The notes: generated by a model from the sequence alone, not told the origin. A stretch of DNA of 64,000 nt from Escherichia coli (GCF_003991155.1 NZ_CP031297.1), one strand, 5' to 3'. Numbered from the stretch's first letter, positions 8,339 to 19,276 are shown. Numbers and translations are program-made.

Positions 8339-9199
8339 ATGACAGAACAAAGTACCAAATCACTACGTCTCGGGGTTTTTGCCGCCATTATTTTGGGGCT
8401 CGTAGGAACCGGGTTCGGAATCTACCAGCTCGTGAAAGAGAAGGATCTGGCGCAAGAGATCGCCAACGTGAAGTCCACGGTCAACCAGGTGAAAGATGCC
8501 GAAGGCGTCACCTTCAAAAGCAAGGCAGAGTTTGAGGCTGCTGTGGCCGAAAGCATCAATAAGTTTGTCGCGCAGAAACAACAAGCCGACATCGATCAGA
8601 AGTATGCCCAGTTCGAGGCGGCACCTGAAAAGGTCGAAGACGGCAAACACATCTATGGGGACCTTGGTGCCCGATTCACGCTGGTGGAGTTCTCTGATAT
8701 GGAGTGCCCCTTCTGTAAGCAATTCCACGACACGCCCAAGCAAATTGTGGATGCCAGTAAAGGCAATGTGAATTGGCAGTGGAAGCACATGCCTCTCGAC
8801 TTCCATAACCCGGCAGCTCACAAGGAAGCGTTGGCCGCTGAATGTATTGCTGAACAGAAGGGCAACCGTGGCTTCTGGGTCTTCGTGAATGAGATTTTCC
8901 ATCACAGCAAAGGCAACGGTGCCGGTGTTTCTGACTTGGCCTCTGTTGTCACGGGTGTTGGTGCTGATCTGGATGCTTTCCGTGAGTGTCTCAGCTCTGG
9001 CAAGCACGAAGATAAAGTTCAAGCTGACATCCAGAAAGCCAAGAGTTACGGCGTTAATGGTACTCCAGCAACCTTTGTTGTAGACAACCAGACAGGCAAG
9101 AGTCAGCTACTCGGTGGTGCTCAACCGGCACAAGCCATCATGGCGGTGATGCGAAAAATGATGATTGAGTCGCAACAAGACGACTCAGCGAACCAATAA
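8339..9199 (+). CDS. DsbA-like thiol:disulfide oxidoreductase, membrane-anchored
   Basis: 286 aa; N-terminal TM, CPFC active-site motif in thioredoxin-like domain. Confidence 0.75.
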   Translation: MTEQSTKSLRLGVFAAIILGLVGTGFGIYQLVKEKDLAQEIANVKSTVNQVKDAEGVTFKSKAEFEAAVAESINKFVAQKQQADIDQKYAQFEAAPEKVEDGKHIYGDLGARFTLVEFSDMECPFCKQFHDTPKQIVDASKGNVNWQWKHMPLDFHNPAAHKEALAAECIAEQKGNRGFWVFVNEIFHHSKGNGAGVSDLASVVTGVGADLDAFRECLSSGKHEDKVQADIQKAKSYGVNGTPATFVVDNQTGKSQLLGGAQPAQAIMAVMRKMMIESQQDDSANQ

Positions 9200-9201
9200 A
9201 A

Positions 9202-9219
9202 ACTTTCACATGTGAAAGT
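9202..9219. promoter_or_regulatory. parS-like 18-bp perfect palindrome ACTTTCACATGTGAAAGT
   Basis: Exact; 14 bp upstream of ORF 9233. Confidence 0.6.
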
Positions 9220-9232
9220 GGAGTGAGAACTG

Positions 9233-9661
9233 ATGATCAAGATTACAACTAAATTGGGGTGCCTTCTGGCGGGGCTGCTTGTCCTGTCGGCTTGCTCAAG
9301 CGTCCCTCAGACAAGCAACGAATACACGAAAGCCCTGGATGATACCAAACAGGTATGTGCTGCCTGTGCTCTGGTTGGTAATGACCTGCTGGTTGCCCTC
9401 AACAAGTCATGCGACAAACCCATAACCCCGGAGACTCTAACCAGCGTCATGAACAGTAACTCGATGTTTGCCGCCATGATGGCAATTAACTCCATTGGTG
9501 GAACCGACCTTTATCAGGTTTACCGTGATGCGGCTATCGACACCCTGCGATGCAATGAGATGGACACTTGGCCTGAACGGACCAAGGTGCGTTTCCAGCA
9601 GCCCGACATGCAAAAGGCGCTGGCCTTGAGGGTTTCTGTCAGACAGCAGAATGCAAATTAA
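9233..9661 (+). CDS. putative lipoprotein
   Basis: 142 aa; signal peptide with lipobox LSAC. Confidence 0.55.
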   Translation: MIKITTKLGCLLAGLLVLSACSSVPQTSNEYTKALDDTKQVCAACALVGNDLLVALNKSCDKPITPETLTSVMNSNSMFAAMMAINSIGGTDLYQVYRDAAIDTLRCNEMDTWPERTKVRFQQPDMQKALALRVSVRQQNAN

Positions 9662-9678
9662 CTTTCACATGTGAAAGT
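9661..9678. promoter_or_regulatory. parS-like 18-bp perfect palindrome ACTTTCACATGTGAAAGT
   Basis: Exact; overlaps stop of ORF 9233..9661, upstream of 9719. Confidence 0.6.
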
Positions 9679-9718
9679 CAGGTCCCTCAGGGGCCTGATT
9701 TCACTATGAGGTGTACCA

Positions 9719-10078
9719 ATGGAGTTACAAGAAGCAAAAAATGCTCTCGATAGCCTTCACCCCCACAAGGCCTCAGCCCCTTTGAGGCTTGTCATCCACC
9801 AGCCTGGAGGGATTGGTGGAACCCCTACCGTAGGGGTGAAAGCAATTCATGCTGGGTTTGATTGGGACAGCAACACCATCCTGATCTACCCGGAAGAGCA
9901 GCTCACCCGGTTGACGCCGGATGAGGTCGCCGCCATCACGAAGTCAGTATCGAAGGGACAGTCCTGGCATTCATATCAGCAGTTCAAGAAGTATCGGGAG
10001 CAGTTGGCCGAAGCCACGGAGGAAATTAATAGGCTCAGGGCTGAGCTGGGCAGGTATCAGAATAACGGGAGGGGGTAA
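9719..10078 (+). CDS. hypothetical protein
   Basis: 119-aa ORF. Confidence 0.45.
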
Positions 10079-10524
10079 TGCTAAAACGCGGAATTATCAA
10101 TCTCGCTGCTAGTTACATCATTGTTGATGCCCTACTCCGGAATGCAGCAATTTGGATCTTTGGCTTGTCCTTCTCCATTGGTGGCACTTACGTCGCTGGC
10201 GAGGCCAGTACATGGGGCGTTTACCTAGCCACTTCTGGTGCAATGACACTCTGTTCTGTCGTAACAGCCTACCTGCTCGTGACCTATCACCGCTGGGGGC
10301 TGATGACGGCCAGGGTCTGGCTGCTATTGAGTGCCTGCCTAAACGGCTATGCCGTCTATTTGAGCAGCCACAACATCCAGTTGGTGGTGGCACTGCTTTC
10401 CAGCCTGTTTATTGCTTTGTGGATGCTCAAGACCCTTGAGCAACCAGCAGTGAAGGGGACGTACAAGGTAATCGCTGATCTTCACCGTCAGCTATGGGGA
10501 ATGTTGAAGGGACAAACACAATGA
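10078..10524 (+). CDS. hypothetical membrane protein
   Basis: 148 aa, ~4 hydrophobic segments. Confidence 0.5.
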
Positions 10525-11039
10525 CGACGAATACTCAAAACGCGAACGCCAACCAGGTTCGGTCTTTACGCGACATGCTTGTCCCCGCCCTGTTGTTCTA
10601 TGTGGTGATGACGGCCATGTTTGTGGGTCTTGACGCATTCATGGATAAACCCACCAGCATGAACCTGCCATTTATGCCGTTCCTTGTCTCGATGGTGAGT
10701 TTTACCAGTGACGCACGTCGAGCGTGGGACTGGCGGAACGGGACCAAGGTTGTGGCCGTATTGACTGCGGTAGCCATGCTGTTGGCATTCATCTATCAAC
10801 TCGCGGTCGGAGAGGTAAATCTCTTAGGGGTTGGTATATACCCGGCCACAGCCATCCTTCTGTTGGCAATCACCTGGGTGATTCGCGCTATCGGAAAGAC
10901 GGCTCCTTTCCAGTTCCTGGGGAGACACCTGGCGCGGTTTGGTGCATCGAAGTGGGTCCAGCGTACCGCCGCAGTCATTGTGCTCGCGGGTGGCCTTGCC
11001 ATCACTGTCTATGCCTACTGGCTTAACCACGGGAGCTGA
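10494..11039 (+). CDS. hypothetical membrane protein
   Basis: 181 aa, multiple hydrophobic segments. Confidence 0.5.
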
Positions 11040-11269
11040 TGATGATCATTGCAACGAAGAGCGGCTTGCTGGTGGCCGCAGAACTAATCAAGGAAGAGGC
11101 CGGGTACTGGCTACTACAGCCTCGTGACCAAAAGACGCCGGTCAGAGTGAATAAGCAAGATGACAATAAACGCGCTTTCACGCATATGGGAGACGCCCTT
11201 CGCTGGGCAGGTGATCCTGAGCTTGCAAAGCAGTTCGATGCCGAGGGGGAAGAACATGCAAATTCGTGA
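11039..11269 (+). CDS. small hypothetical protein
   Basis: 76-aa ORF, start overlaps previous stop. Confidence 0.3.
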   Translation: MMIIATKSGLLVAAELIKEEAGYWLLQPRDQKTPVRVNKQDDNKRAFTHMGDALRWAGDPELAKQFDAEGEEHANS

Positions 11270-12113
11270 CTACATGACAAAGTTGTTTGAAGCATTTGGT
11301 GATGTAGAAGAAGTCACCCGAGAAATGCTTCTGGAGCAGGCGGAGCTCATTCATACGATCAGCGATAAGTGTCAGAGCACAGGCCTGTTTCTGGATAGTC
11401 AGGTTCGTTTCAACCAGTTCGTTCAAGAGATTGAGGCTGACGACAATGTAGAGGATCGGTTGCTTCATGCTTGGTGCTGGGTAATGGACCGAATAGTGAA
11501 GGCACCAACATCCTTTCACATGGATGGGGCTGTGATTTTGACAATGCCTCTGGTCGCCAGATACCTGCCACCAGTTGAACGGGAGCCGGAAACCATCGTG
11601 GTGAATCTCGATGAGGACTACAAGGCTCCTGTAGGCAACCAAACACTCTGCGAGCTCATTATGGAACGGAGGCATTGGCCGCAAGGTGCAACGTGCGCGA
11701 CCCAAGAAGCGGATGGTGAAATCCTCTACTGGGACGCCCCGGTTCAGGTAGTAGAGGAAGGCAGAAAGGCCGCTGGCAAGCATGGCATGATGGCTGAAAT
11801 AGGATTAAAGCATCAAGTAGACTTTTGGTTTTCTGACATGGCCGAAACTCGGCTCGCAACCGATTGGAACACCGCCGTCATCACACCTCACTGCTTGCTA
11901 CTTTCCTATCTTGATGTGCTCCAAAAGAACAAAGTGCCGTTTGATGAGGGGGTGCGGCTCGCTGCCGAATGGGTAACGCAACTTGGTGGGGAGTCTCGTA
12001 AAGATACCGAGGAAGAGCCGGAAGCTGATGCTACGGTGCTTTCCCTTGGGCGAGCCACAGCTCATTGCTTTAAACCTTATCCGGACACACAAAATTTCTA
12101 TTACGAGGCCTAA
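11256..12113 (+). CDS. hypothetical protein
   Basis: ~286 aa from ATG 11256 (RBS GAGGGGGAA) within ORF 11160..12113. Confidence 0.45.
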   Translation: MQIRDYMTKLFEAFGDVEEVTREMLLEQAELIHTISDKCQSTGLFLDSQVRFNQFVQEIEADDNVEDRLLHAWCWVMDRIVKAPTSFHMDGAVILTMPLVARYLPPVEREPETIVVNLDEDYKAPVGNQTLCELIMERRHWPQGATCATQEADGEILYWDAPVQVVEEGRKAAGKHGMMAEIGLKHQVDFWFSDMAETRLATDWNTAVITPHCLLLSYLDVLQKNKVPFDEGVRLAAEWVTQLGGESRKDTEEEPEADATVLSLGRATAHCFKPYPDTQNFYYEA

Positions 12114-12138
12114 GCCTCACCCAAACAGGAGGATCAAC

Positions 12139-12330
12139 ATGCGATACCAGGTATTTAAAACGAAGGAAGGGGGCCTGCCGGTGTTTACTGCACCGTGGTA
12201 CTGGTTGGCCTCTGCCATTGCTCACTGGTCATCTCTTAACTGGGATGCCTGTCGAATCGTAGACAGCAAGGCGGATAAAACAATGCTCTGCTGGGCCAAG
12301 GCTCTACCGGCTGCAAAAAAGATGGAGTGA
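12139..12330 (+). CDS. small hypothetical protein
   Basis: 63 aa, RBS AGGAGG. Confidence 0.3.
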   Translation: MRYQVFKTKEGGLPVFTAPWYWLASAIAHWSSLNWDACRIVDSKADKTMLCWAKALPAAKKME

Positions 12331-12332
12331 TT

Positions 12333-12860
12333 ATGAGGTTCGGTTTTGCAAAAAAGACGGGGATTTCAGCGTTCCTATCAGCAATGCTGGTGCTGGCTCC
12401 TCATGTGTGGGCAGAGACCTTCACTGCAAAGGTTGTGGGGGTGTCTGATGGTGATACGGTCAAAGTGCTAACGGAACAAAGCTGCGATACCGGAAAAGAC
12501 TGCCGGAGTGGCAAGATCCAGTACCGAGTAAGGCTCGCGGAGATCGATACTCCAGAGAAAAAGCAGCCATACGGCTCAAAGGCGAAGCAGGCCTTATCAG
12601 ATCTGGTGTTTGGTCGAATGATCAAAGTGGAGCAAATCGACAAAGACCGTTATGGCCGCCTGGTTGCCAATCTCTATGTCGATGGCAAATGGGTCAATGC
12701 CGAAATGGTCCGTTCTGGGAGTGCGTGGGTGTACCGGCAGTACGCCAAAACACCGGAGCTGTTCAAGCTGGAGACCGAGGCCAAAGCCGATAAGCGAGGT
12801 CTCTGGGCATTACCGGAATCGGAGAGAACTCCCCCTTGGGAGTGGCGAAGAAAGCACTAA
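12333..12860 (+). CDS. secreted thermonuclease (staphylococcal nuclease-like, SNase fold)
   Basis: Signal peptide; AKVVGVSDGDTVKV ... RLAEIDTPE ... GRLVANLYVDG pattern typical of SNase homologues. Confidence 0.8.
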   Translation: MRFGFAKKTGISAFLSAMLVLAPHVWAETFTAKVVGVSDGDTVKVLTEQSCDTGKDCRSGKIQYRVRLAEIDTPEKKQPYGSKAKQALSDLVFGRMIKVEQIDKDRYGRLVANLYVDGKWVNAEMVRSGSAWVYRQYAKTPELFKLETEAKADKRGLWALPESERTPPWEWRRKH

Positions 12861-12917
12861 CCACACCCCAGAGTATGCAGGTGTAAACAGTAACCAAGAA
12901 AACAAACAGGAATAACG

Positions 12918-13190
12918 ATGAACAAAAGCGAACTGATTATGAAAGTGGCCGAAGACGCTGATATTAGCAAAGCAAAGGCCGAAGCTGCGGTAAATGCGCT
13001 GATCAACTCAGTGAAAGAGGTGCTTAAAGCGGGTGGGACAGTAGCGCTTACTGGGTTTGGTACTTTCCACGTTAAGGAACGCGCAGCGCGAACCGGACGG
13101 AATCCCCAGACTGGAGAGAACATCCAGATCGCGGCGGCCAACATTCCTGGGTTCAAAGCTGGTAAGGGGTTGAAAGACTCCGTGAACTAG
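12918..13190 (+). CDS. HU-family histone-like DNA-binding protein
   Basis: 90 aa; MNKSELI...GFGTF...R.ARTGRNP.TGE.I.I motif characteristic of HU/IHF. Confidence 0.85.
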
Positions 13191-13207
13191 ATCTTAATCA
13201 TGTGACA

Positions 13208-13255
13208 CATGAATAAGGTTTACATAAGGCTCCTTTCGTGGGAGCCTTATTCATA
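13208..13255 (+). terminator. hairpin/terminator-like structure after HU gene
   Basis: AAGGCTCC-TTTCGT-GGGAGCCTT stem-loop flanked by CATGAATAAGG direct repeat; weak T-run. Confidence 0.35.
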
Positions 13256-13278
13256 TCAGACATGAATAAGGGGGCGGA

Positions 13279-13572
13279 ATGAGGTTGTCGTCAACTCAAA
13301 AGGACGTTTTGTTCATTCTATACGCAATTGAGGCCGGTGGAAAAGCCGAGCCTGTACCAGGTGTAAAAATACTGGAGATGATCAACTCAGCTCGCCAGAG
13401 CGGTATTCATGGAACGAACTTCCGAACGTCATGCCACACGCTGGTGGAGAATGGCCTGTTGAACAAGTACCGGAATGCTTCTCTAAAGCTGGCCTTTAGG
13501 CTGACCGACGATGGCAGGGAACGTGCAGGAGAGATATACCGCAAACGGCTGGAGGAAGTGCAAGATAAGTAA
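13279..13572 (+). CDS. hypothetical protein
   Basis: 97-aa ORF. Confidence 0.4.
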   Translation: MRLSSTQKDVLFILYAIEAGGKAEPVPGVKILEMINSARQSGIHGTNFRTSCHTLVENGLLNKYRNASLKLAFRLTDDGRERAGEIYRKRLEEVQDK

Positions 13573-13598
13573 TACGCCCCATAACGGGGCGTATCGAG

Positions 13599-13901
13599 TT
13601 AAACGGCAAAGCCGTAGTGGGTGCCGTCCGGAAGTTCAACATCGAGGCGTAGCTTGCCACCGGAGGCCTCAACGTACCGCTTAATGGACGACAGCTTGAG
13701 ATCTCGTCCAGGTTTTTCCATCTCGGAGACTGTCGGCTGTCTCACACCCAGAGATGCAGCAATTTCCCCCTGGGTAAGGTTCATGCGATCACGAAGCTCT
13801 GCCAAGTGGATGTTCAGTAACATCTCAGTGGCCGCTTTCTGTGCTTTGGCAACAACCTCAGGCTTTTCTGTTGCCAGCATTTGGTCAAGAGTTCTTGCCA
13901 T
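13599..13901 (-). CDS. HTH XRE-family antitoxin (HigA-like)
   Basis: 100 aa; HTH MNLTQGEIAASLGVRQPTVSEME; 5-bp gap to upstream toxin gene. Confidence 0.75.
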   Translation of the reverse strand: MARTLDQMLATEKPEVVAKAQKAATEMLLNIHLAELRDRMNLTQGEIAASLGVRQPTVSEMEKPGRDLKLSSIKRYVEASGGKLRLDVELPDGTHYGFAV

Positions 13902-13905
13902 AACG

Positions 13906-14256
13906 TCACTCCTTCTTCAATTTATCCAAGTGCGCCGCAAACTCGCGGTCTGCAATTGGGATCATTACTTCATAAAACCTTTTCTCGTCCCCGGTCTTGT
14001 TACCGGCGCAGAGAAGAATCCCCTTACGCTTTGGATCGAACGCAAAGAATGCCCTGATAGGATCTCCTTTGCTTTGGACCCGCAGCTCTTTCATGTTGCT
14101 GTAGGATGAACCGTTAACAGTATCCGCGTATGGTCTCGACAGCATGGGACCTCTATCTCGCAGCACCATCATCGAAGCCAGCACGTTGGCTCTATCGGTA
14201 TCATCCAGTGCATCGAACCACTCATCAAAGGTGTCAGTTGTCTCGATGACCCACAT
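13906..14256 (-). CDS. RelE/ParE-superfamily toxin (HigB-like)
   Basis: 116 aa; toxin-first gene order with XRE antitoxin. Confidence 0.7.
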   Translation of the reverse strand: MWVIETTDTFDEWFDALDDTDRANVLASMMVLRDRGPMLSRPYADTVNGSSYSNMKELRVQSKGDPIRAFFAFDPKRKGILLCAGNKTGDEKRFYEVMIPIADREFAAHLDKLKKE

Positions 14257-14418
14257 GGTTTCTCCTTACTTAATATAGGTGCAATCCTATATAGATTCAA
14301 ACCTATAATCAAGAAAAATCGGCGGCTATGGGGGACGAAATGCCGGTAAGTAGTCATGTGACTAAAATAGGGGGTAGAATAGGCCTCAATATAGTCATGT
14401 GACTAAAAGGTGTACTGA

Positions 14419-14967
14419 ATGAACAACCTGCCCCTACTGCTCGACGCAAGAGAAGCCATTGACTACTACCACCAGCATCCAGACATGACTGATGCAGAAA
14501 AGGCCTATGTGGTCGCGTTCCTAAGCGGAGAGGGGCGCTCAAACAGTCAGATCAGAGAGGAACTGGGGATTGAGAAGGTATACACGGTTACACACCTGAA
14601 ACGCGCCGGTACGCTGTCGGAGGAAGAGCTCACACTCTGGCTCAGAAATCCACGCAAGATCACCCTGGGACATGTGAGAGCCGTGGCTAAGTTACCTATC
14701 AGCAAGAGAGAAAAGCTCCTGAGGGATCTCCTGCATACCAGGACACCGGTTCATACATATGAGGCGATAGCGAAGGGCAAAGAAGTGGATAGGGATGCTG
14801 ACATTAAGCGTCTGGAAACCCTGATGAGCGATGCGACGGGTAGGCCCATCAAAATTCGCTATAACCCCGCGAAGCGCTCCGGGGAGCTGACGCTGGGATT
14901 CTTCACGCTCGATGACCTGGATGACGTGTGCAAGGCTCTGGGGTTTGATCCAAGCGAGCAGATGTAA
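14419..14967 (+). CDS. hypothetical protein, possible HTH
   Basis: 182 aa; ITLGHVRAVAKLP segment reminiscent of ParB-type HTH (weak). Confidence 0.4.
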   Translation: MNNLPLLLDAREAIDYYHQHPDMTDAEKAYVVAFLSGEGRSNSQIREELGIEKVYTVTHLKRAGTLSEEELTLWLRNPRKITLGHVRAVAKLPISKREKLLRDLLHTRTPVHTYEAIAKGKEVDRDADIKRLETLMSDATGRPIKIRYNPAKRSGELTLGFFTLDDLDDVCKALGFDPSEQM

Positions 14968-14975
14968 ACCAGAAA

Positions 14976-14993
14976 ACTTTCACATGTGAAAGT
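14976..14993. promoter_or_regulatory. parS-like 18-bp perfect palindrome ACTTTCACATGTGAAAGT
   Basis: Exact; 9 bp after stop of ORF 14419..14967. Confidence 0.6.
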
Positions 14994-15015
14994 CTTGCAA
15001 GGTGTCTTTTTATTG

Positions 15016-15043
15016 TTTACAGTATCATAAAATGAATCTGTAA
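15016..15043. promoter_or_regulatory. 28-bp palindrome family copy (TTTACAGTATCATAAAATGAATCTGTAAA)
   Basis: Adjacent to parS-like site, upstream of ORF 15057. Confidence 0.5.
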
Positions 15044-15056
15044 AGGTGCGCGATGA

Positions 15057-15308
15057 ATGTGCTTCCAACGAAAAGCTGGCCTTGGGCGTTATAACTCAAC
15101 CAGACCTGAGTGGCTGGCGGCGTACCGAAACGCAAGATGTATGAGAAGCTCAGGTAAAGAACCTGATGCTTCTCTTTCCGGGATAGCTTGGAAGGCGCAA
15201 CTCATTGTTGCCCATGAAAGAGGCAGAATTGACAGCCTGGCTGTCCCTTTGGATGCCAGATTGATAGCAAAGAACCTCATCGACGAGATCCTTGCTGAGG
15301 AGAACTGA
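15057..15308 (+). CDS. hypothetical protein
   Basis: 83-aa ORF. Confidence 0.35.
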   Translation: MCFQRKAGLGRYNSTRPEWLAAYRNARCMRSSGKEPDASLSGIAWKAQLIVAHERGRIDSLAVPLDARLIAKNLIDEILAEEN

Positions 15309-15502
15309 TGGACGAAAAAATTACCTACGAAGAAATGCTTGAACAACTCGACCAGAAAGGCATCCGCGTCACCAACGGGGCGAGACGGCTTTATGTCGCG
15401 TTGAACAACGGAGTCAAAGCTGAGGTGCTGGGTAACTGCGGTCCCGCCACAATCAGCTTGGTTGACGGGATGATTGTTGTGGAAGAGCAGACTCTCCACT
15501 AA
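15308..15502 (+). CDS. hypothetical protein
   Basis: 64-aa ORF, start overlaps previous stop. Confidence 0.35.
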   Translation: MDEKITYEEMLEQLDQKGIRVTNGARRLYVALNNGVKAEVLGNCGPATISLVDGMIVVEEQTLH

Positions 15503-15512
15503 GGGCAGCAGC

Positions 15513-15884
15513 ATGGGCAAAAAAGTACACATCATTTGTGGAAAGTGCGGCAGTGACGAGATGAACTTTGTCATCAATGGACACTGTCCAGACGATCCCC
15601 AGAATGTTGCCAGTATGTCCTGCTCAAATTGTTGCGAACTGACAGGCATAGCCGAGTGGTCGGAATTTAATGGACGTGAGCTGAAAGGTGAAGCCGTCGC
15701 CCTATCAACACCGGCAAACGTGAATGCTCTTCTAGGATTGCTTCGCCAGGCGATGGACAGCGTTGAGTATCGCCTCTATGGCGGGGGCATGTCATTGAGC
15801 GGTAATGATGCTGCCGAACTCATAGACCTCCAGGAGCGAGCTGAGAAGGTCTTGTCTGTTCTTCGGAGTGATCAGCATGAGTGA
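15513..15884 (+). CDS. hypothetical protein with N-terminal CxxC zinc-ribbon-like motif
   Basis: ~123 aa from ATG 15513; ICGKCGSDEM. Confidence 0.4.
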   Translation: MGKKVHIICGKCGSDEMNFVINGHCPDDPQNVASMSCSNCCELTGIAEWSEFNGRELKGEAVALSTPANVNALLGLLRQAMDSVEYRLYGGGMSLSGNDAAELIDLQERAEKVLSVLRSDQHE

Positions 15885-16347
15885 TTTATACGAACCGCTT
15901 GAGTTTGTGTTCTGCGGCTTTAGGAAAGGGGACGCTGGGCTCTTTATCTCGGTAGCCACTTTGCGCGATGGTGTTTTAGGCCGTGAGATGTATTTCTCAA
16001 AGGGAAAAAGCAAAAGGCGCTGGGTTGTCGGTGGCATTTACTCAGGGGCCTCGTTTTCGGACAACGGAGCAAAAGGTCTGGATGATGCTCATTACGTTAA
16101 AGCATGGGAAGTGCAAGGCGACAAGATAGAGTGGCAAGCAAAAAGCGAGCAAGCCGAAGCCTTGGCGCGAAGCGAGAAACTTGAAGCCGACGATAGGAAG
16201 CGCAATGAACTCGAAGAGCTGATGCTACCCATCAGGAAGCAATATGGGGCATTAACAAAGCGACGTGATAGGGCAGGGGCCGCAGCTCTTGAAGAAGCTG
16301 TCCTGAGAGCGCTGAGAGCGCCCATCAGGAAGGCTGAGGAGAAATAA
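15868..16347 (+). CDS. hypothetical protein
   Basis: 159-aa ORF. Confidence 0.4.
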   Translation: MISMSDLYEPLEFVFCGFRKGDAGLFISVATLRDGVLGREMYFSKGKSKRRWVVGGIYSGASFSDNGAKGLDDAHYVKAWEVQGDKIEWQAKSEQAEALARSEKLEADDRKRNELEELMLPIRKQYGALTKRRDRAGAAALEEAVLRALRAPIRKAEEK

Positions 16348-16361
16348 CCGTGGAGCCAGTC

Positions 16362-16703
16362 TTAGCTAAAGCATTCGCCGGTTTTAAAGTCGTAGCTGTA
16401 AGTGCCCATCAGATTGGCTTTTCGGCTTTTTTTGCCATTGGTGTTTGCTGGCGCTTTAGGGGTCGCAAGTACGCCATAGAACAGGATACCAACAAGTGCC
16501 GCTTGCCACGCGAAAACAGCAACCAGAATCCAAAAAGCAGCAGCCAGAACCGGCAGTTTGTGCAGAAGGTTGAGCACCGGCTTGGCCCAAATCACTGCCG
16601 GGATAGCCAGCACTGCGTAACCCCAGTTGGTTGCCTCAAGCATAGCCAGGCCAAGAACAACAACAGCCATCAGCGCGATATTCAGTACATGTTTCATGGT
16701 CAT
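16362..16703 (-). CDS. small membrane protein
   Basis: 113 aa, 3-4 hydrophobic segments; convergent with upstream gene. Confidence 0.4.
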   Translation of the reverse strand: MTMKHVLNIALMAVVVLGLAMLEATNWGYAVLAIPAVIWAKPVLNLLHKLPVLAAAFWILVAVFAWQAALVGILFYGVLATPKAPANTNGKKSRKANLMGTYSYDFKTGECFS

Positions 16704-16793
16704 CTCTCCTTTTCAACTTACACTTTTATCCTATCACAGCATTAAAAAATGCAACTGTGAAAGGGCGTTTTTCATTCAAAAAGAGGTGACACT

Positions 16794-17282
16794 TTGAGTG
16801 CAATTATCAGCAAGTGCGGCATGTACAGATACCGTCTGGAAAGGGATGTGCAACCCGAAGGCCTTGTGTTCGGTTATTTTGGTGTAAACGGCTCTACGGC
16901 CACGGCCACCGAGGACGATCACACGGTCAGAAAGTGGATAGGGTTTACCAAGGTCAACGGAGGGAGGCGATTCATAGTCGGTAATGCTTTTGCTTTTCGG
17001 GCGACCGACGTTCGAGAGCTGGCTACGGCGGTTGATCCTGTCGGGCCTGAAAATGAAATCCACTTGGAAAGGATTATTCGGGATGCTGATGTCTTGGTGC
17101 CCTGCTGGGGGAGCCGAACTAAGCTGCCTAAGTCTTTGCATGTTCATTTGGACAGGCTTTTAGAGCAGCTCGTTGCATCTGGGAAGCCGGTATTGGCATT
17201 TGGCGTGACTGGTTCGGGGGACCCGAAGCACCCACTAATGCTTGGATATTCGACAAAACTTGTGCCCTGGGGAGGAAAATAA
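16794..17282 (+). CDS. DUF1643-like protein
   Basis: 162 aa; N-terminal CGMYRYRLER motif that I recall as the DUF1643 signature. Confidence 0.5.
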   Translation: MSAIISKCGMYRYRLERDVQPEGLVFGYFGVNGSTATATEDDHTVRKWIGFTKVNGGRRFIVGNAFAFRATDVRELATAVDPVGPENEIHLERIIRDADVLVPCWGSRTKLPKSLHVHLDRLLEQLVASGKPVLAFGVTGSGDPKHPLMLGYSTKLVPWGGK

Positions 17283-17284
17283 TT

Positions 17285-17782
17285 ATGTCGATGCTTGAAG
17301 CACGTTACTTCGTGGCAAAGATAAGCGATGCACAGGCCGTGCTCTGCGATGAGGAGCTGGCGACACTGGAAAGGCTGATCCGGAAGGTTGATGATGGCCG
17401 CAGAGCAAATGGCAAGAGCTCGCTTACTTGCGTTGTTGTCGAAGAAGATTGGCCGAACTGGCAGCAAACGGTTGACTCTGTACTTTCACTTGCTGACGGG
17501 AAAGACAACGATTGGACCAATGCCACACCAGAACAAATCAAGGCCTTTTGGGTCGATGACTCAGTTTGGAAAACTCTGGATGGCCGGGATAAATGGATTG
17601 AAGATCTCGACCTGCTGGTGGACGGTTCCCCGGTGGCTTCTGAGTGGGAACCTTTTGGCTTGGAATCAGGGCAGTCTGTCGTCATACGAGGCGGATGGAT
17701 AGAAGGGAATGCCTTGAGTGATGATGGCGTACCGCTAGTGCAGGCATTCGTCGCTTGGAAACAGGGCCAAGACAACCACTAA
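17285..17782 (+). CDS. hypothetical protein
   Basis: 165-aa ORF. Confidence 0.45.
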   Translation: MSMLEARYFVAKISDAQAVLCDEELATLERLIRKVDDGRRANGKSSLTCVVVEEDWPNWQQTVDSVLSLADGKDNDWTNATPEQIKAFWVDDSVWKTLDGRDKWIEDLDLLVDGSPVASEWEPFGLESGQSVVIRGGWIEGNALSDDGVPLVQAFVAWKQGQDNH

Positions 17783-17828
17783 AGGAAAATTACTTCGGAA
17801 GGGCGGCTATGGCCGCTTTCTTTTTAAT

Positions 17829-17856
17829 ATTTACAGTATCACATAATGATACTATG
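17829..17856. promoter_or_regulatory. 28-bp palindrome family copy (TTTACAGTATCACATAATGATACTATGA)
   Basis: Upstream of ORF 17886. Confidence 0.45.
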
Positions 17857-17885
17857 ATGTTGTTAATTTACTTGGGGAGGCGCTT

Positions 17886-18149
17886 ATGCTCACTGCTAAA
17901 TGTATAGGGTGCGGATGCACCGATGATCACGCTTGTGTTGAAAACGGTCAACCGTGTCACTGGCTTCGCGTGAATAGAGTGGAAGGTATCGGGGTCTGCT
18001 CTTCGTGCCCGGATGCTCTCAATCAATTCGCATCGACCAGCCAGGAACAAGCAACTGGACAGGATGACTACCGGAACAGTCCAGAATGGAAGGATTTTTC
18101 ATCACGCATTGGTAATGCACTATGCGGGGGCCGGAGCAAAGCAAAGTAA
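17886..18149 (+). CDS. Cys-rich small protein
   Basis: 87 aa; CIGCGC ... CSSC. Confidence 0.4.
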   Translation: MLTAKCIGCGCTDDHACVENGQPCHWLRVNRVEGIGVCSSCPDALNQFASTSQEQATGQDDYRNSPEWKDFSSRIGNALCGGRSKAK

Positions 18150-18154
18150 GGTAA

Positions 18155-18176
18155 AAACGGCTATGCCGTTTTTTAT
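18155..18176 (+). terminator. rho-independent terminator
   Basis: AACGGC-TAT-GCCGTT hairpin followed by T-run. Confidence 0.5.
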
Positions 18177-18183
18177 TTGTCTA

Positions 18184-18226
18184 TTACGGCATCACATTAT
18201 AAGCCTGTAAATGCTGAATCTGTAAT
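18184..18226. promoter_or_regulatory. degenerate 28-bp palindrome family copy
   Basis: TTACGGCATCACATTATAAGCCTGTAAATGCTGAATCTGTAA. Confidence 0.35.
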
Positions 18227-18241
18227 TGCCCAAAATGGGCG
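18227..18241. promoter_or_regulatory. TGCCCAAAATGGGCG motif (third cis-element family)
   Basis: GCCC-N5-GGGC inverted repeat. Confidence 0.4.
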
Positions 18242-18311
18242 TGAGCAGGGGCGGGGTGTGAGGTCGTTCTAAGGCAAAATACTTTGTACTGGCAGAACAA
18301 AGAAAGAATGA

Positions 18312-18329
18312 ACTTTCACATGTGAAAGT
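18312..18329. promoter_or_regulatory. parS-like 18-bp perfect palindrome ACTTTCACATGTGAAAGT
   Basis: Exact; 2 bp upstream of ORF 18332. Confidence 0.6.
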
Positions 18330-18331
18330 TT

Positions 18332-19276
18332 TTGGGGTACGGGATGGAACAAGCAATTCAAAGTTACTTGGCTGACGACCGGCAATATCAAGACAGGATT
18401 ACCGCAGCTCTCAGCCAGGTTGAAGAGAAAGGTGCAGAGTACGAAGCTCTTTGCCAACAGCGTGCTCAGTTGGGGATCTGGCAAAAAATTATAACGTTCT
18501 GGCAGTTTCGTCGAGACATCGCCGTTATACGTTCAGCACTAAAAGGCCATAACAGCGATTTGCGGTATTTGCGCCGTGGGAGAGACCAGCTCAAAGAGGG
18601 ATTGGTTTCTCGGGCCGTGAAGCAAGCGATTGACGGTAGCCAGATTCTGGAACGAATCACCCAAGCTCAAGATAGGCTTGACGCCGCATCTCGACTCCAC
18701 GAGAGCAACAAGCGACTGGTGGACATGGGGCAAAAAGCCTTACGTGAAATCAGTGAGGCCTCTTCCAGTATTTCATCAGCACAAACAATGGAGGTTCTCG
18801 ACCTTGTGACTGACAACAAGGGCATTTCCGTCATGTCGTCGATGTCAAACTCCTCGGCCAGCAGTGAAATAGACGATGCGAAGAGAGCTGTGAAAGCCTT
18901 CGCAAATGCGCTGGGGGATCATCGTGACATTGTGGGCTCACTGCACCACTCAATGGCAACTGAGTTTATCGATCTGGGTATGGACTTTGCCGGTTTGAAT
19001 GATGGTTTCGACTTTGGGAGCGTCTTCTCGCTGTTCAGCTTGTCGTCTGCCAGTTCCTCTCTGGACAAAGTAGAGTCTCGCGTTGAATCTCTGATGCCAG
19101 ATCTAAGACGAGCCGCCTCCAATTCGGCAGCAGAGTATGCCCGTGTTAACGAAGAGTTCTTTGGCCTAAAACAACAGGCCTGTTGCCAAGTGCATGAGTT
19201 GCTGGTGACAAATGGTATAGACGTGTCAGTCAAGCGCGTTGAGTCCGCCGTGAACAGCTACAGAGTTGGAAGGTGA
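18332..19276 (+). CDS. hypothetical protein (coiled-coil-rich)
   Basis: 314-aa ORF. Confidence 0.45.
   Translation: MGYGMEQAIQSYLADDRQYQDRITAALSQVEEKGAEYEALCQQRAQLGIWQKIITFWQFRRDIAVIRSALKGHNSDLRYLRRGRDQLKEGLVSRAVKQAIDGSQILERITQAQDRLDAASRLHESNKRLVDMGQKALREISEASSSISSAQTMEVLDLVTDNKGISVMSSMSNSSASSEIDDAKRAVKAFANALGDHRDIVGSLHHSMATEFIDLGMDFAGLNDGFDFGSVFSLFSLSSASSSLDKVESRVESLMPDLRRAASNSAAEYARVNEEFFGLKQQACCQVHELLVTNGIDVSVKRVESAVNSYRVGR

Follow-up and report, generated by a model that had tools for sequence, protein, structure and literature searches.

The gene pair analysed here is the HigB/HigA module (higBA, also referred to as tad/ata) of the IncC (IncA/C2) plasmid backbone, which is already known and has been tested experimentally by Qi, Kamruzzaman & Iredell (mSphere 2021; PMC8265657); the locus is the type example of this known system, and not merely one of its members. 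A first-pass annotation of the window (the whole stretch of 64,000 nucleotides that was analysed) had described a HigBA-like, toxin-first type II pair acting as an addiction module, a description that is supported by the match to the published locus. We consider it almost certain that higBA is a type II addiction module, formed by a ribosome-dependent mRNase toxin with a RelE fold and an HTH antitoxin that is probably also a repressor, and nothing was found that contradicts the toxin-antitoxin reading. Identity with the published locus, family and fold membership, location on the backbone and conservation of the promoter were demonstrated in this analysis. The candidate operators, a proposed promoter reading and comparative evidence weakening the LexA-box hypothesis are new; the rest was already known.

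Identity, organization and backbone context of the locus

Identity with the locus described in PMC8265657 was fixed using the sequence strings quoted in that paper and its Table S2. The toxin and antitoxin ORFs were reported there to be 351 and 303 bp long, respectively (PMC8265657); these lengths, the glycine G64 of the toxin, the promoter hexamers TTGAAT and TATATT, and the putative SOS box GATTGCACCTATATTAAGTA were all found verbatim in the window. Moreover, two higB variants have been described, which differ in nine synonymous codons (7, 16, 23, 36, 41, 58, 68, 69, and 104; Table S2, PMC8265657), and the higB gene of the window corresponds to variant 2 at all nine, with, for example, ACT at codon 7 and GCA at codon 16. 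Because ORF lengths, G64, promoter hexamers, SOS box and variant codons all match, the locus is the module of PMC8265657. Protein accessions are identical for both higB variants. The 1.1 kb around the pair showed 100% identity to pMS6198A and to numerous further IncC plasmids, and the coordinates of the window are those of pMS6198A counted from repA. In a further publication, the pair was named a HigBA-like TA system and part of the conserved IncC backbone (PMC10954446).

The features of the locus are listed in Table 1. The two ORFs, with the toxin gene first, were confirmed from the sequence at the positions and lengths given in the first-pass annotation, as was their location on the opposite strand: the pair lies on the minus strand and every annotated neighbour on the plus strand. 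The gap of 5 bp that it had given must be corrected to 4 nt, as the higB-higA junction reads AAG GAG TGA CGTT ATG. The location of the higA Shine-Dalgarno sequence inside the end of higB suggests that translation of the two genes may be coupled. The gene order is that of a HigBA operon, with higB followed by higA on the same strand, a single upstream promoter region, and a hairpin after higA; a G+C-rich hairpin was also observed 3' of higA in the Marinospirillum and Xenorhabdus homologs. In RefSeq, the same two ORFs are labelled 'type II toxin-antitoxin system RelE/ParE family toxin' and 'XRE family transcriptional regulator'. On the plus strand, a 162-aa ORF (13621-14109) lies antisense to higBA; it was regarded as a shadow ORF and is absent from the RefSeq annotation.

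Table 1. Features of the higBA locus (positions counted from the first nucleotide of the window)
Feature	Position	Strand	Basis
higB toxin gene, 116 aa, ATG start	13906-14256	-	ORF; PF05973; AF2 model; variant-2 codons
higA antitoxin gene, 100 aa, ATG start, XRE-type HTH	13599-13901	-	ORF; HTH_37/HTH_3; HigA2/HigA3 similarity
Intergenic spacer CGTT, 4 nt	13902-13905	-	Direct sequence reading
higB Shine-Dalgarno AAGGAG, 5 nt before ATG	14267-14262	-	Sequence reading
higA Shine-Dalgarno AAGGAG, within final two higB codons	13914-13909	-	Sequence reading
Terminator-like G+C-rich hairpin GATACGCCCCGTTATGGGGCGTATT, directly 3' of higA stop codon, between higA and convergent 97-aa ORF	13571-13595	-	Terminator scan
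Published BPROM promoter: -35 TTGAAT (14300-14295), 17-nt spacer, -10 TATATT (14277-14272)	14272-14300	-	Consensus scan; PMC8265657
Proposed alternative promoter: -35 TTGATT (14312-14307), 17-nt spacer, -10 TAGGAT (14289-14284)	14284-14312	-	Conserved alignment columns
Two overlapping 18-bp palindromes TATAG-N8-CTATA (14290-14307 and 14274-14291)	14274-14307		Repeats; conservation
Putative non-canonical SOS (LexA) box GATTGCACCTATATTAAGTA	14267-14286	-	PMC8265657; located in window

The pair had initially been placed within a cargo block; instead, it was found to belong to the conserved IncC backbone. It was present in 996 plasmid records, and the surrounding 10 kb (9000-19000) were retained at a coverage of at least 80% in 949. 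Across IncC plasmids, the locus was conserved and collinear with its flanking genes, and its neighbours are the usual IncC backbone genes located between repA and the ParB-family partition gene. The GC content of the pair (approximately 0.50) is the same as that of the flanks, and this comparison of composition gave no sign of recent foreign origin. In PLSDB, 1048 plasmid records contained the 1.1-kb region; they came mainly from Klebsiella, Salmonella, and Escherichia, and 972 of them were conjugative. Among the 132 complete E. coli genomes that carry the locus, 128 copies were located on plasmids and 4 on chromosomes, the latter presumably being integrated IncC segments.

Compared with the IncC plasmid pSH696_135, the higB gene of the window differed at exactly the nine variant codons, always in the third position. 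The variant-2 type was the rarer one (231 records at an identity of at least 99%, versus 758 at 95-99%). In the same comparison, the flanks differed by 2-5% and higB by its 9 synonymous differences; two stretches showed zero differences, namely 378 bp containing all of higA and the 3' end of higB (13567-13944) and the promoter/operator stretch (14259-14326). Recombination or gene conversion confined to a patch would be the most probable cause. Constraint on higA at the nucleotide level, such as an embedded RNA, was considered and rejected, as synonymous divergence of higA in the wider homologs was at least as high as that of higB.

Several observations were made on the neighbouring genes and on their annotation. 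The 97-aa ORF that follows higA (13279-13572) had no Pfam match and is mislabelled 'chromosome segregation protein ParM' in RefSeq NC_019118.1. Just beyond it lie, on the plus strand, genes encoding a 90-aa HU-family DNA-binding protein (12918-13190; E 3.7e-34) and a 177-aa staphylococcal-nuclease homolog with a hydrophobic, signal-like N-terminus (12327-12860; SNase, E 4.4e-28), both of which belong to the conserved IncC backbone. On the other side, the ORF at 14419-14967, divergent from higB, encodes a 182-aa protein with a ParB_C dimerisation domain (E 1.3e-8). Upstream of it we found a 41-nt direct repeat (73% identity; 14327-14408, plus strand) with two exact copies of a near-palindrome, TAGTCATGTGACTA, the first overlapping a promoter-like site (14351-14364) and the second located just before the ORF (14392-14405). 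This near-palindrome occurs nowhere else in the 64 kb, and 4 matches were obtained on both strands with at most two mismatches, versus 0.30 expected. The product of the ORF looks like an autoregulated DNA-binding protein of the ParB/KorB type. Finally, HigB itself bears the wrong label 'diaminopimelate decarboxylase' in several entries of GenBank, NCBI, and UniRef. The propagated misannotations of HigB and of the 97-aa ORF concern, among others, GenBank records CP029718.1 and CP034397.1 and protein clusters P0021 and P0031.

Families and fold of the two proteins

In the Pfam search, HigB matched PF05973 (Gp49/DUF891) with an E-value of 5.8e-23 and a score of 81.2 bits (gathering cut-off 23.9), over profile positions 1-89 of 90; this was the sole Pfam match of the IncC toxin. 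HigA exceeded the thresholds of HTH_37 (29.3 bits versus 27) and HTH_3 (28 bits versus 23), and is an XRE/Cro-type HTH protein. Both Pfam families anticipated by the first-pass annotation, PF05973 and HTH_3, were consequently recovered above cut-off. In NCBIfam, only sub-threshold matches were obtained, to models of RelE/ParE toxins and of HipB/MqsA-type antitoxins. Among these families, TIGR02683 (upstrm_HI1419 RelE/ParE toxin equivalog) has a curated cut-off of 62.85 bits, and HigB scored 21.4 bits; it is related to this equivalog and is not a member of it.

Among solved structures, the nearest relatives of HigA by sequence were HigA2 (7ewc; E 2.7e-6, residues 15-94) and HigA3 (6lty; E 4.5e-5) of Mycobacterium tuberculosis, while the HigA protein of Streptococcus pneumoniae gave a weak match (E 0.57). 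For HigB, a single-sequence search against the PDB returned no solved relative, and a search with a 95-sequence profile returned one chance match only. Since solved relatives were undetectable by sequence, the comparison was based on fold. The AF2 model of HigB was of high confidence (mean pLDDT 97.3, pTM 0.90) and exhibited a β-α-α-β-β-β-β-α topology. When this model was compared with the PDB using Foldseek, the first thirteen matches were all HigB or RelE toxins, the top ones with a probability of 1.00; matches at this probability included 6af4, 5jaa, 2khe, 1wmi, and 4fxe. RelE proteins of Thermus, Pyrococcus, M. tuberculosis, and E. coli, as well as the Helicobacter toxin 4lsy, were among the fold matches. 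ParE structures matched more weakly (8c24, E 0.28; 7r5a, E 0.6) than HigB and RelE structures (E 2e-4 to 5e-3). As modelled, HigB has the fold of the RelE/ParE superfamily, and the RelE fold expected from the first annotation was borne out, HigB and RelE structures being the best matches.

Conserved residues were examined in an alignment of the toxin family, for which representatives of clusters at 50% identity were searched and 2911 proteins were retained at E ≤ 0.001. R59, R68, R77, K87, and Y95 are among the residues shared by at least 90% of its members. In a profile alignment to E. coli RelE using hhalign, which was colinear and not significant (E 0.15), R68 and Y95 were located opposite R61 and Y87, respectively, two RelE residues cited as important in mRNA cleavage (PMC8265657). 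Residue 64 of HigB has been described as critical, the G64V substitution abolishing both toxicity and transcript depletion (PMC8265657). This residue is a glycine in the window and, in the AF2 model, it is part of a two-residue turn between strands 56-62 and 65-73, a position that fits the loss of function of G64V. The model suggests that the substitution may disturb a tight β-turn adjoining R59 and R68, rather than remove a catalytic group.

Homologous loci, promoter region and candidate operators

Protein searches revealed that the Gp49-type toxin is very widespread and that distant bacteria carry close relatives on their chromosomes (81-94% identity). We compared six homologous loci, from Xenorhabdus, Legionella, Marinospirillum, Alkalimonas, and two metagenomes. 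The lengths of the toxin (116 aa) and of the antitoxin (100 aa) were retained in each of the six, the gap was 5-6 nt, and the genes on either side were entirely different. When the flanks were aligned, the shared homology was found to extend from approximately 65 nt 5' of the higB start codon to the higA stop codon; the higBA pair, the promoter of about 65 nt and the palindromes move jointly into unrelated genomic contexts. Compared with the Marinospirillum homolog, each gene exhibited 30 synonymous and 7 non-synonymous codon changes, and both higB and higA are under strong purifying selection.

Two of these loci showed particular surroundings. In Xenorhabdus, the module lies between a fragment of 54-88 aa and a 426-aa gene, both matching Cys_Met_Meta_PP, and looks as if it had been inserted near the 5' end of the Cys_Met_Meta_PP gene. 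In Alkalimonas, the module is flanked on either side by a copy of a CSD/DUF1294 gene, the two copies being 94% identical, and adjoins PhdYeFM/ParE pairs in an array-like, TA-rich region. The possibility that the homologous modules are integron cassettes was rejected: the Alkalimonas array has no attC-like inverted repeats, and homology stops at the higA stop codon.

TTGAAT, the -35 hexamer published for higBA, varies among the homologous loci. In an alignment of 7 unrelated homologous loci, TTGA and TAG-AT were invariant columns, which points to TTGATT-17-TAGGAT as a better conserved promoter reading than TTGAAT-17-TATATT. Under either reading, the promoter elements are covered by the two TATAG-N8-CTATA palindromes, which are 16 bp apart and have the central CTATATAG in common. 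These are the only two exact occurrences of this pattern in the 64-kb window, 0.31 being expected by chance with one mismatch allowed. Their half-sites were invariant across the 7 homologous loci, with variable spacers. The same two-site design was observed in a marine homolog with 61% toxin identity, and a single palindrome, ATAGC-N6-GCTAT, in a further homolog. In the Acinetobacter baumannii homolog of pAb-G7-2, a different twin palindrome (ATAACCT-AA-AGGTTAT, twice) was found, together with the recognition-helix motif SQAAIS, versus RQPTVS in IncC HigA. As this pattern is the one expected for operators of HTH dimers, we propose that the two TATAG-N8-CTATA palindromes are probably HigA or HigBA operators. 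Neither a palindrome or operator nor an alternative promoter for higBA is mentioned in PMC8265657, and the proposal may help to dissect the regulation of IncC higBA.

Proposed mode of action and comparison with known systems

[quoted passage not shown] According to earlier work, as quoted in PMC8265657, cells in which the toxin is present and expressed do not survive disruption of the antitoxin. When the operon was cloned with its native promoter in pACYC184, retention of this plasmid over 70 generations rose from approximately 88% to 99-100% (PMC8265657). HigB also depletes the lpp and ompA transcripts and the part of ssrA that is translated, whereas the untranslated part of ssrA is depleted much less; the evidence for RNase activity is depletion of transcripts as determined by qRT-PCR, for mRNAs that are A-rich and translated (PMC8265657).

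In the mechanism that we propose, a single promoter would give rise to a bicistronic higB-higA transcript. HigB, with its RelE fold, would act as a ribosome-dependent mRNA endonuclease that arrests growth, presumably through direct cleavage on the ribosome, and HigA would bind and neutralise it. In addition, HigA would, via its HTH, most likely repress the promoter at the two overlapping palindromes. In a daughter cell that has lost the plasmid, HigA, assumed to be labile, would not be replenished, and free HigB would arrest the cell, favouring plasmid-bearing cells.

Three alternatives to parts of this scheme were weighed, the first concerning regulation. Under it, higBA would be mainly a stress module under SOS control, with LexA bound to GATTGCACCTATATTAAGTA and derepression upon DNA damage. 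[quoted passage not shown] However, LexA-regulon boxes follow CTG-N10-CAG, and this one reads TTG-N10-AAG, deviating in both critical trimers. These trimer positions are not conserved in the six homologous loci, where the palindrome half-sites are invariant; the box shares sequence with the proximal palindrome and with the published -10 hexamer, and it owes its score to an AT-rich centre made up of the right arm of the conserved palindrome plus that hexamer. Weak binding is expected by the authors of PMC8265657 themselves, and stress-induced proteolysis of the antitoxin, which would relieve autorepression, could in our view explain the induction equally well. The box weakly suggests that control of higBA by LexA is possible, and we regard a mainly LexA-controlled module as unlikely. 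We give an even chance to the proposal that the SOS box is the proximal arm of a two-site HigA operator, that induction by ciprofloxacin occurs via lost autorepression, for example through proteolysis of the antitoxin, and not via LexA cleavage, and that the unit of approximately 0.75 kb is self-contained and has spread to distant chromosomes. If this is true, promoter, operators, higB, higA, and hairpin together form a self-contained module of that size, found at 84-94% protein identity in the chromosomes of Xenorhabdus, Legionella, Marinospirillum, and Alkalimonas without recognisable mobility genes of its own.

The two other alternatives concern what the module is selected for and what the toxin acts on. 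Abortive infection, anti-phage defence or conflict between mobile elements, rather than post-segregational killing, might be the selected function: HigB matches NsnC, a PADLOC model, in its C-terminal part (E 4e-8), HigA matches HTH models of defence systems, and very close homologs (84-94% amino-acid identity) are chromosomal, where plasmid addiction is irrelevant. The PADLOC match, however, spans only the shared Gp49-like domain, and stabilisation of a plasmid has been measured (PMC8265657); the two roles are not mutually exclusive, and defence as the selected function appears somewhat less probable still than LexA control. As RelE and ParE share one fold, and the RefSeq name is just 'RelE/ParE family toxin', HigB could also be a ParE-like gyrase poison instead of an mRNA endonuclease, which could explain the cell elongation observed upon its expression (PMC8265657). 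Yet this expression induces neither lexA nor recA and depletes translated mRNAs (PMC8265657), ParE structures are far weaker matches to the model than HigB and RelE structures, and the equivalents of RelE R61 and Y87 are conserved; we consider a gyrase poison very improbable. An mRNA endonuclease within an addiction module remains the preferred reading. IncC plasmids are major carriers of genes for carbapenemases and ESBLs, and their single backbone TA module aids persistence without antibiotic selection, making it a conceivable target for plasmid curing, a point already made and tested in the literature.

Among known systems, the IncC HigBA of PMC8265657 is the same as the locus of the window, with zero differences. 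The best structural match to the HigB model was the S. pneumoniae toxin (HigBA; 6af3/6af4), with TM-scores of 0.65-0.73 (0.71-0.73 for 6af4), and that of Vibrio cholerae HigBA2 (5jaa; E 3.8e-4) was also among the best; the aligned identity of these two toxins with IncC HigB is just 13-18%, which was undetectable by sequence or profile search. For the antitoxin, M. tuberculosis HigA2 and HigA3 resemble IncC HigA over residues 15-94, a span that includes the HTH as well as the strand region at the C-terminus, but are chromosomal and distantly related. E. coli RelE has the same fold as the HigB model (4fxe_E, TM 0.76 normalised to the target), without significant sequence similarity; unlike in IncC higBA, the antitoxin gene comes first in relBE. 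The RelB antitoxin of E. coli is not an XRE-HTH protein.

The HigB toxin of Rts1 probably belongs to a different Pfam HigB family than Gp49/PF05973, so that 'HigBA' serves as an operational name for several lineages of the RelE superfamily. The Rts1 archetype (Proteus vulgaris) is similar to IncC HigBA in having the toxin first, an HTH antitoxin, a plasmid-stabilising effect and A-rich mRNA targets (PMC8265657). A. baumannii HigBA2 (pAB120; the homolog on pAb-G7-2 was examined) also has the toxin gene first, encoding a Gp49-type protein of approximately 119 aa, followed by an HTH antitoxin of approximately 99 aa, and both proteins are 51% identical to those of IncC (PMC8265657). The pAb-G7-2 homolog, like the IncC locus, has two tandem palindromes in its promoter, although the operator sequence and the recognition-helix motif are different and its genes overlap by one base, whereas those of IncC are separated by 4 nt. 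According to PMC8265657, the A. baumannii higBA2 operon is believed to be repressed by its antitoxin and by the TA complex.
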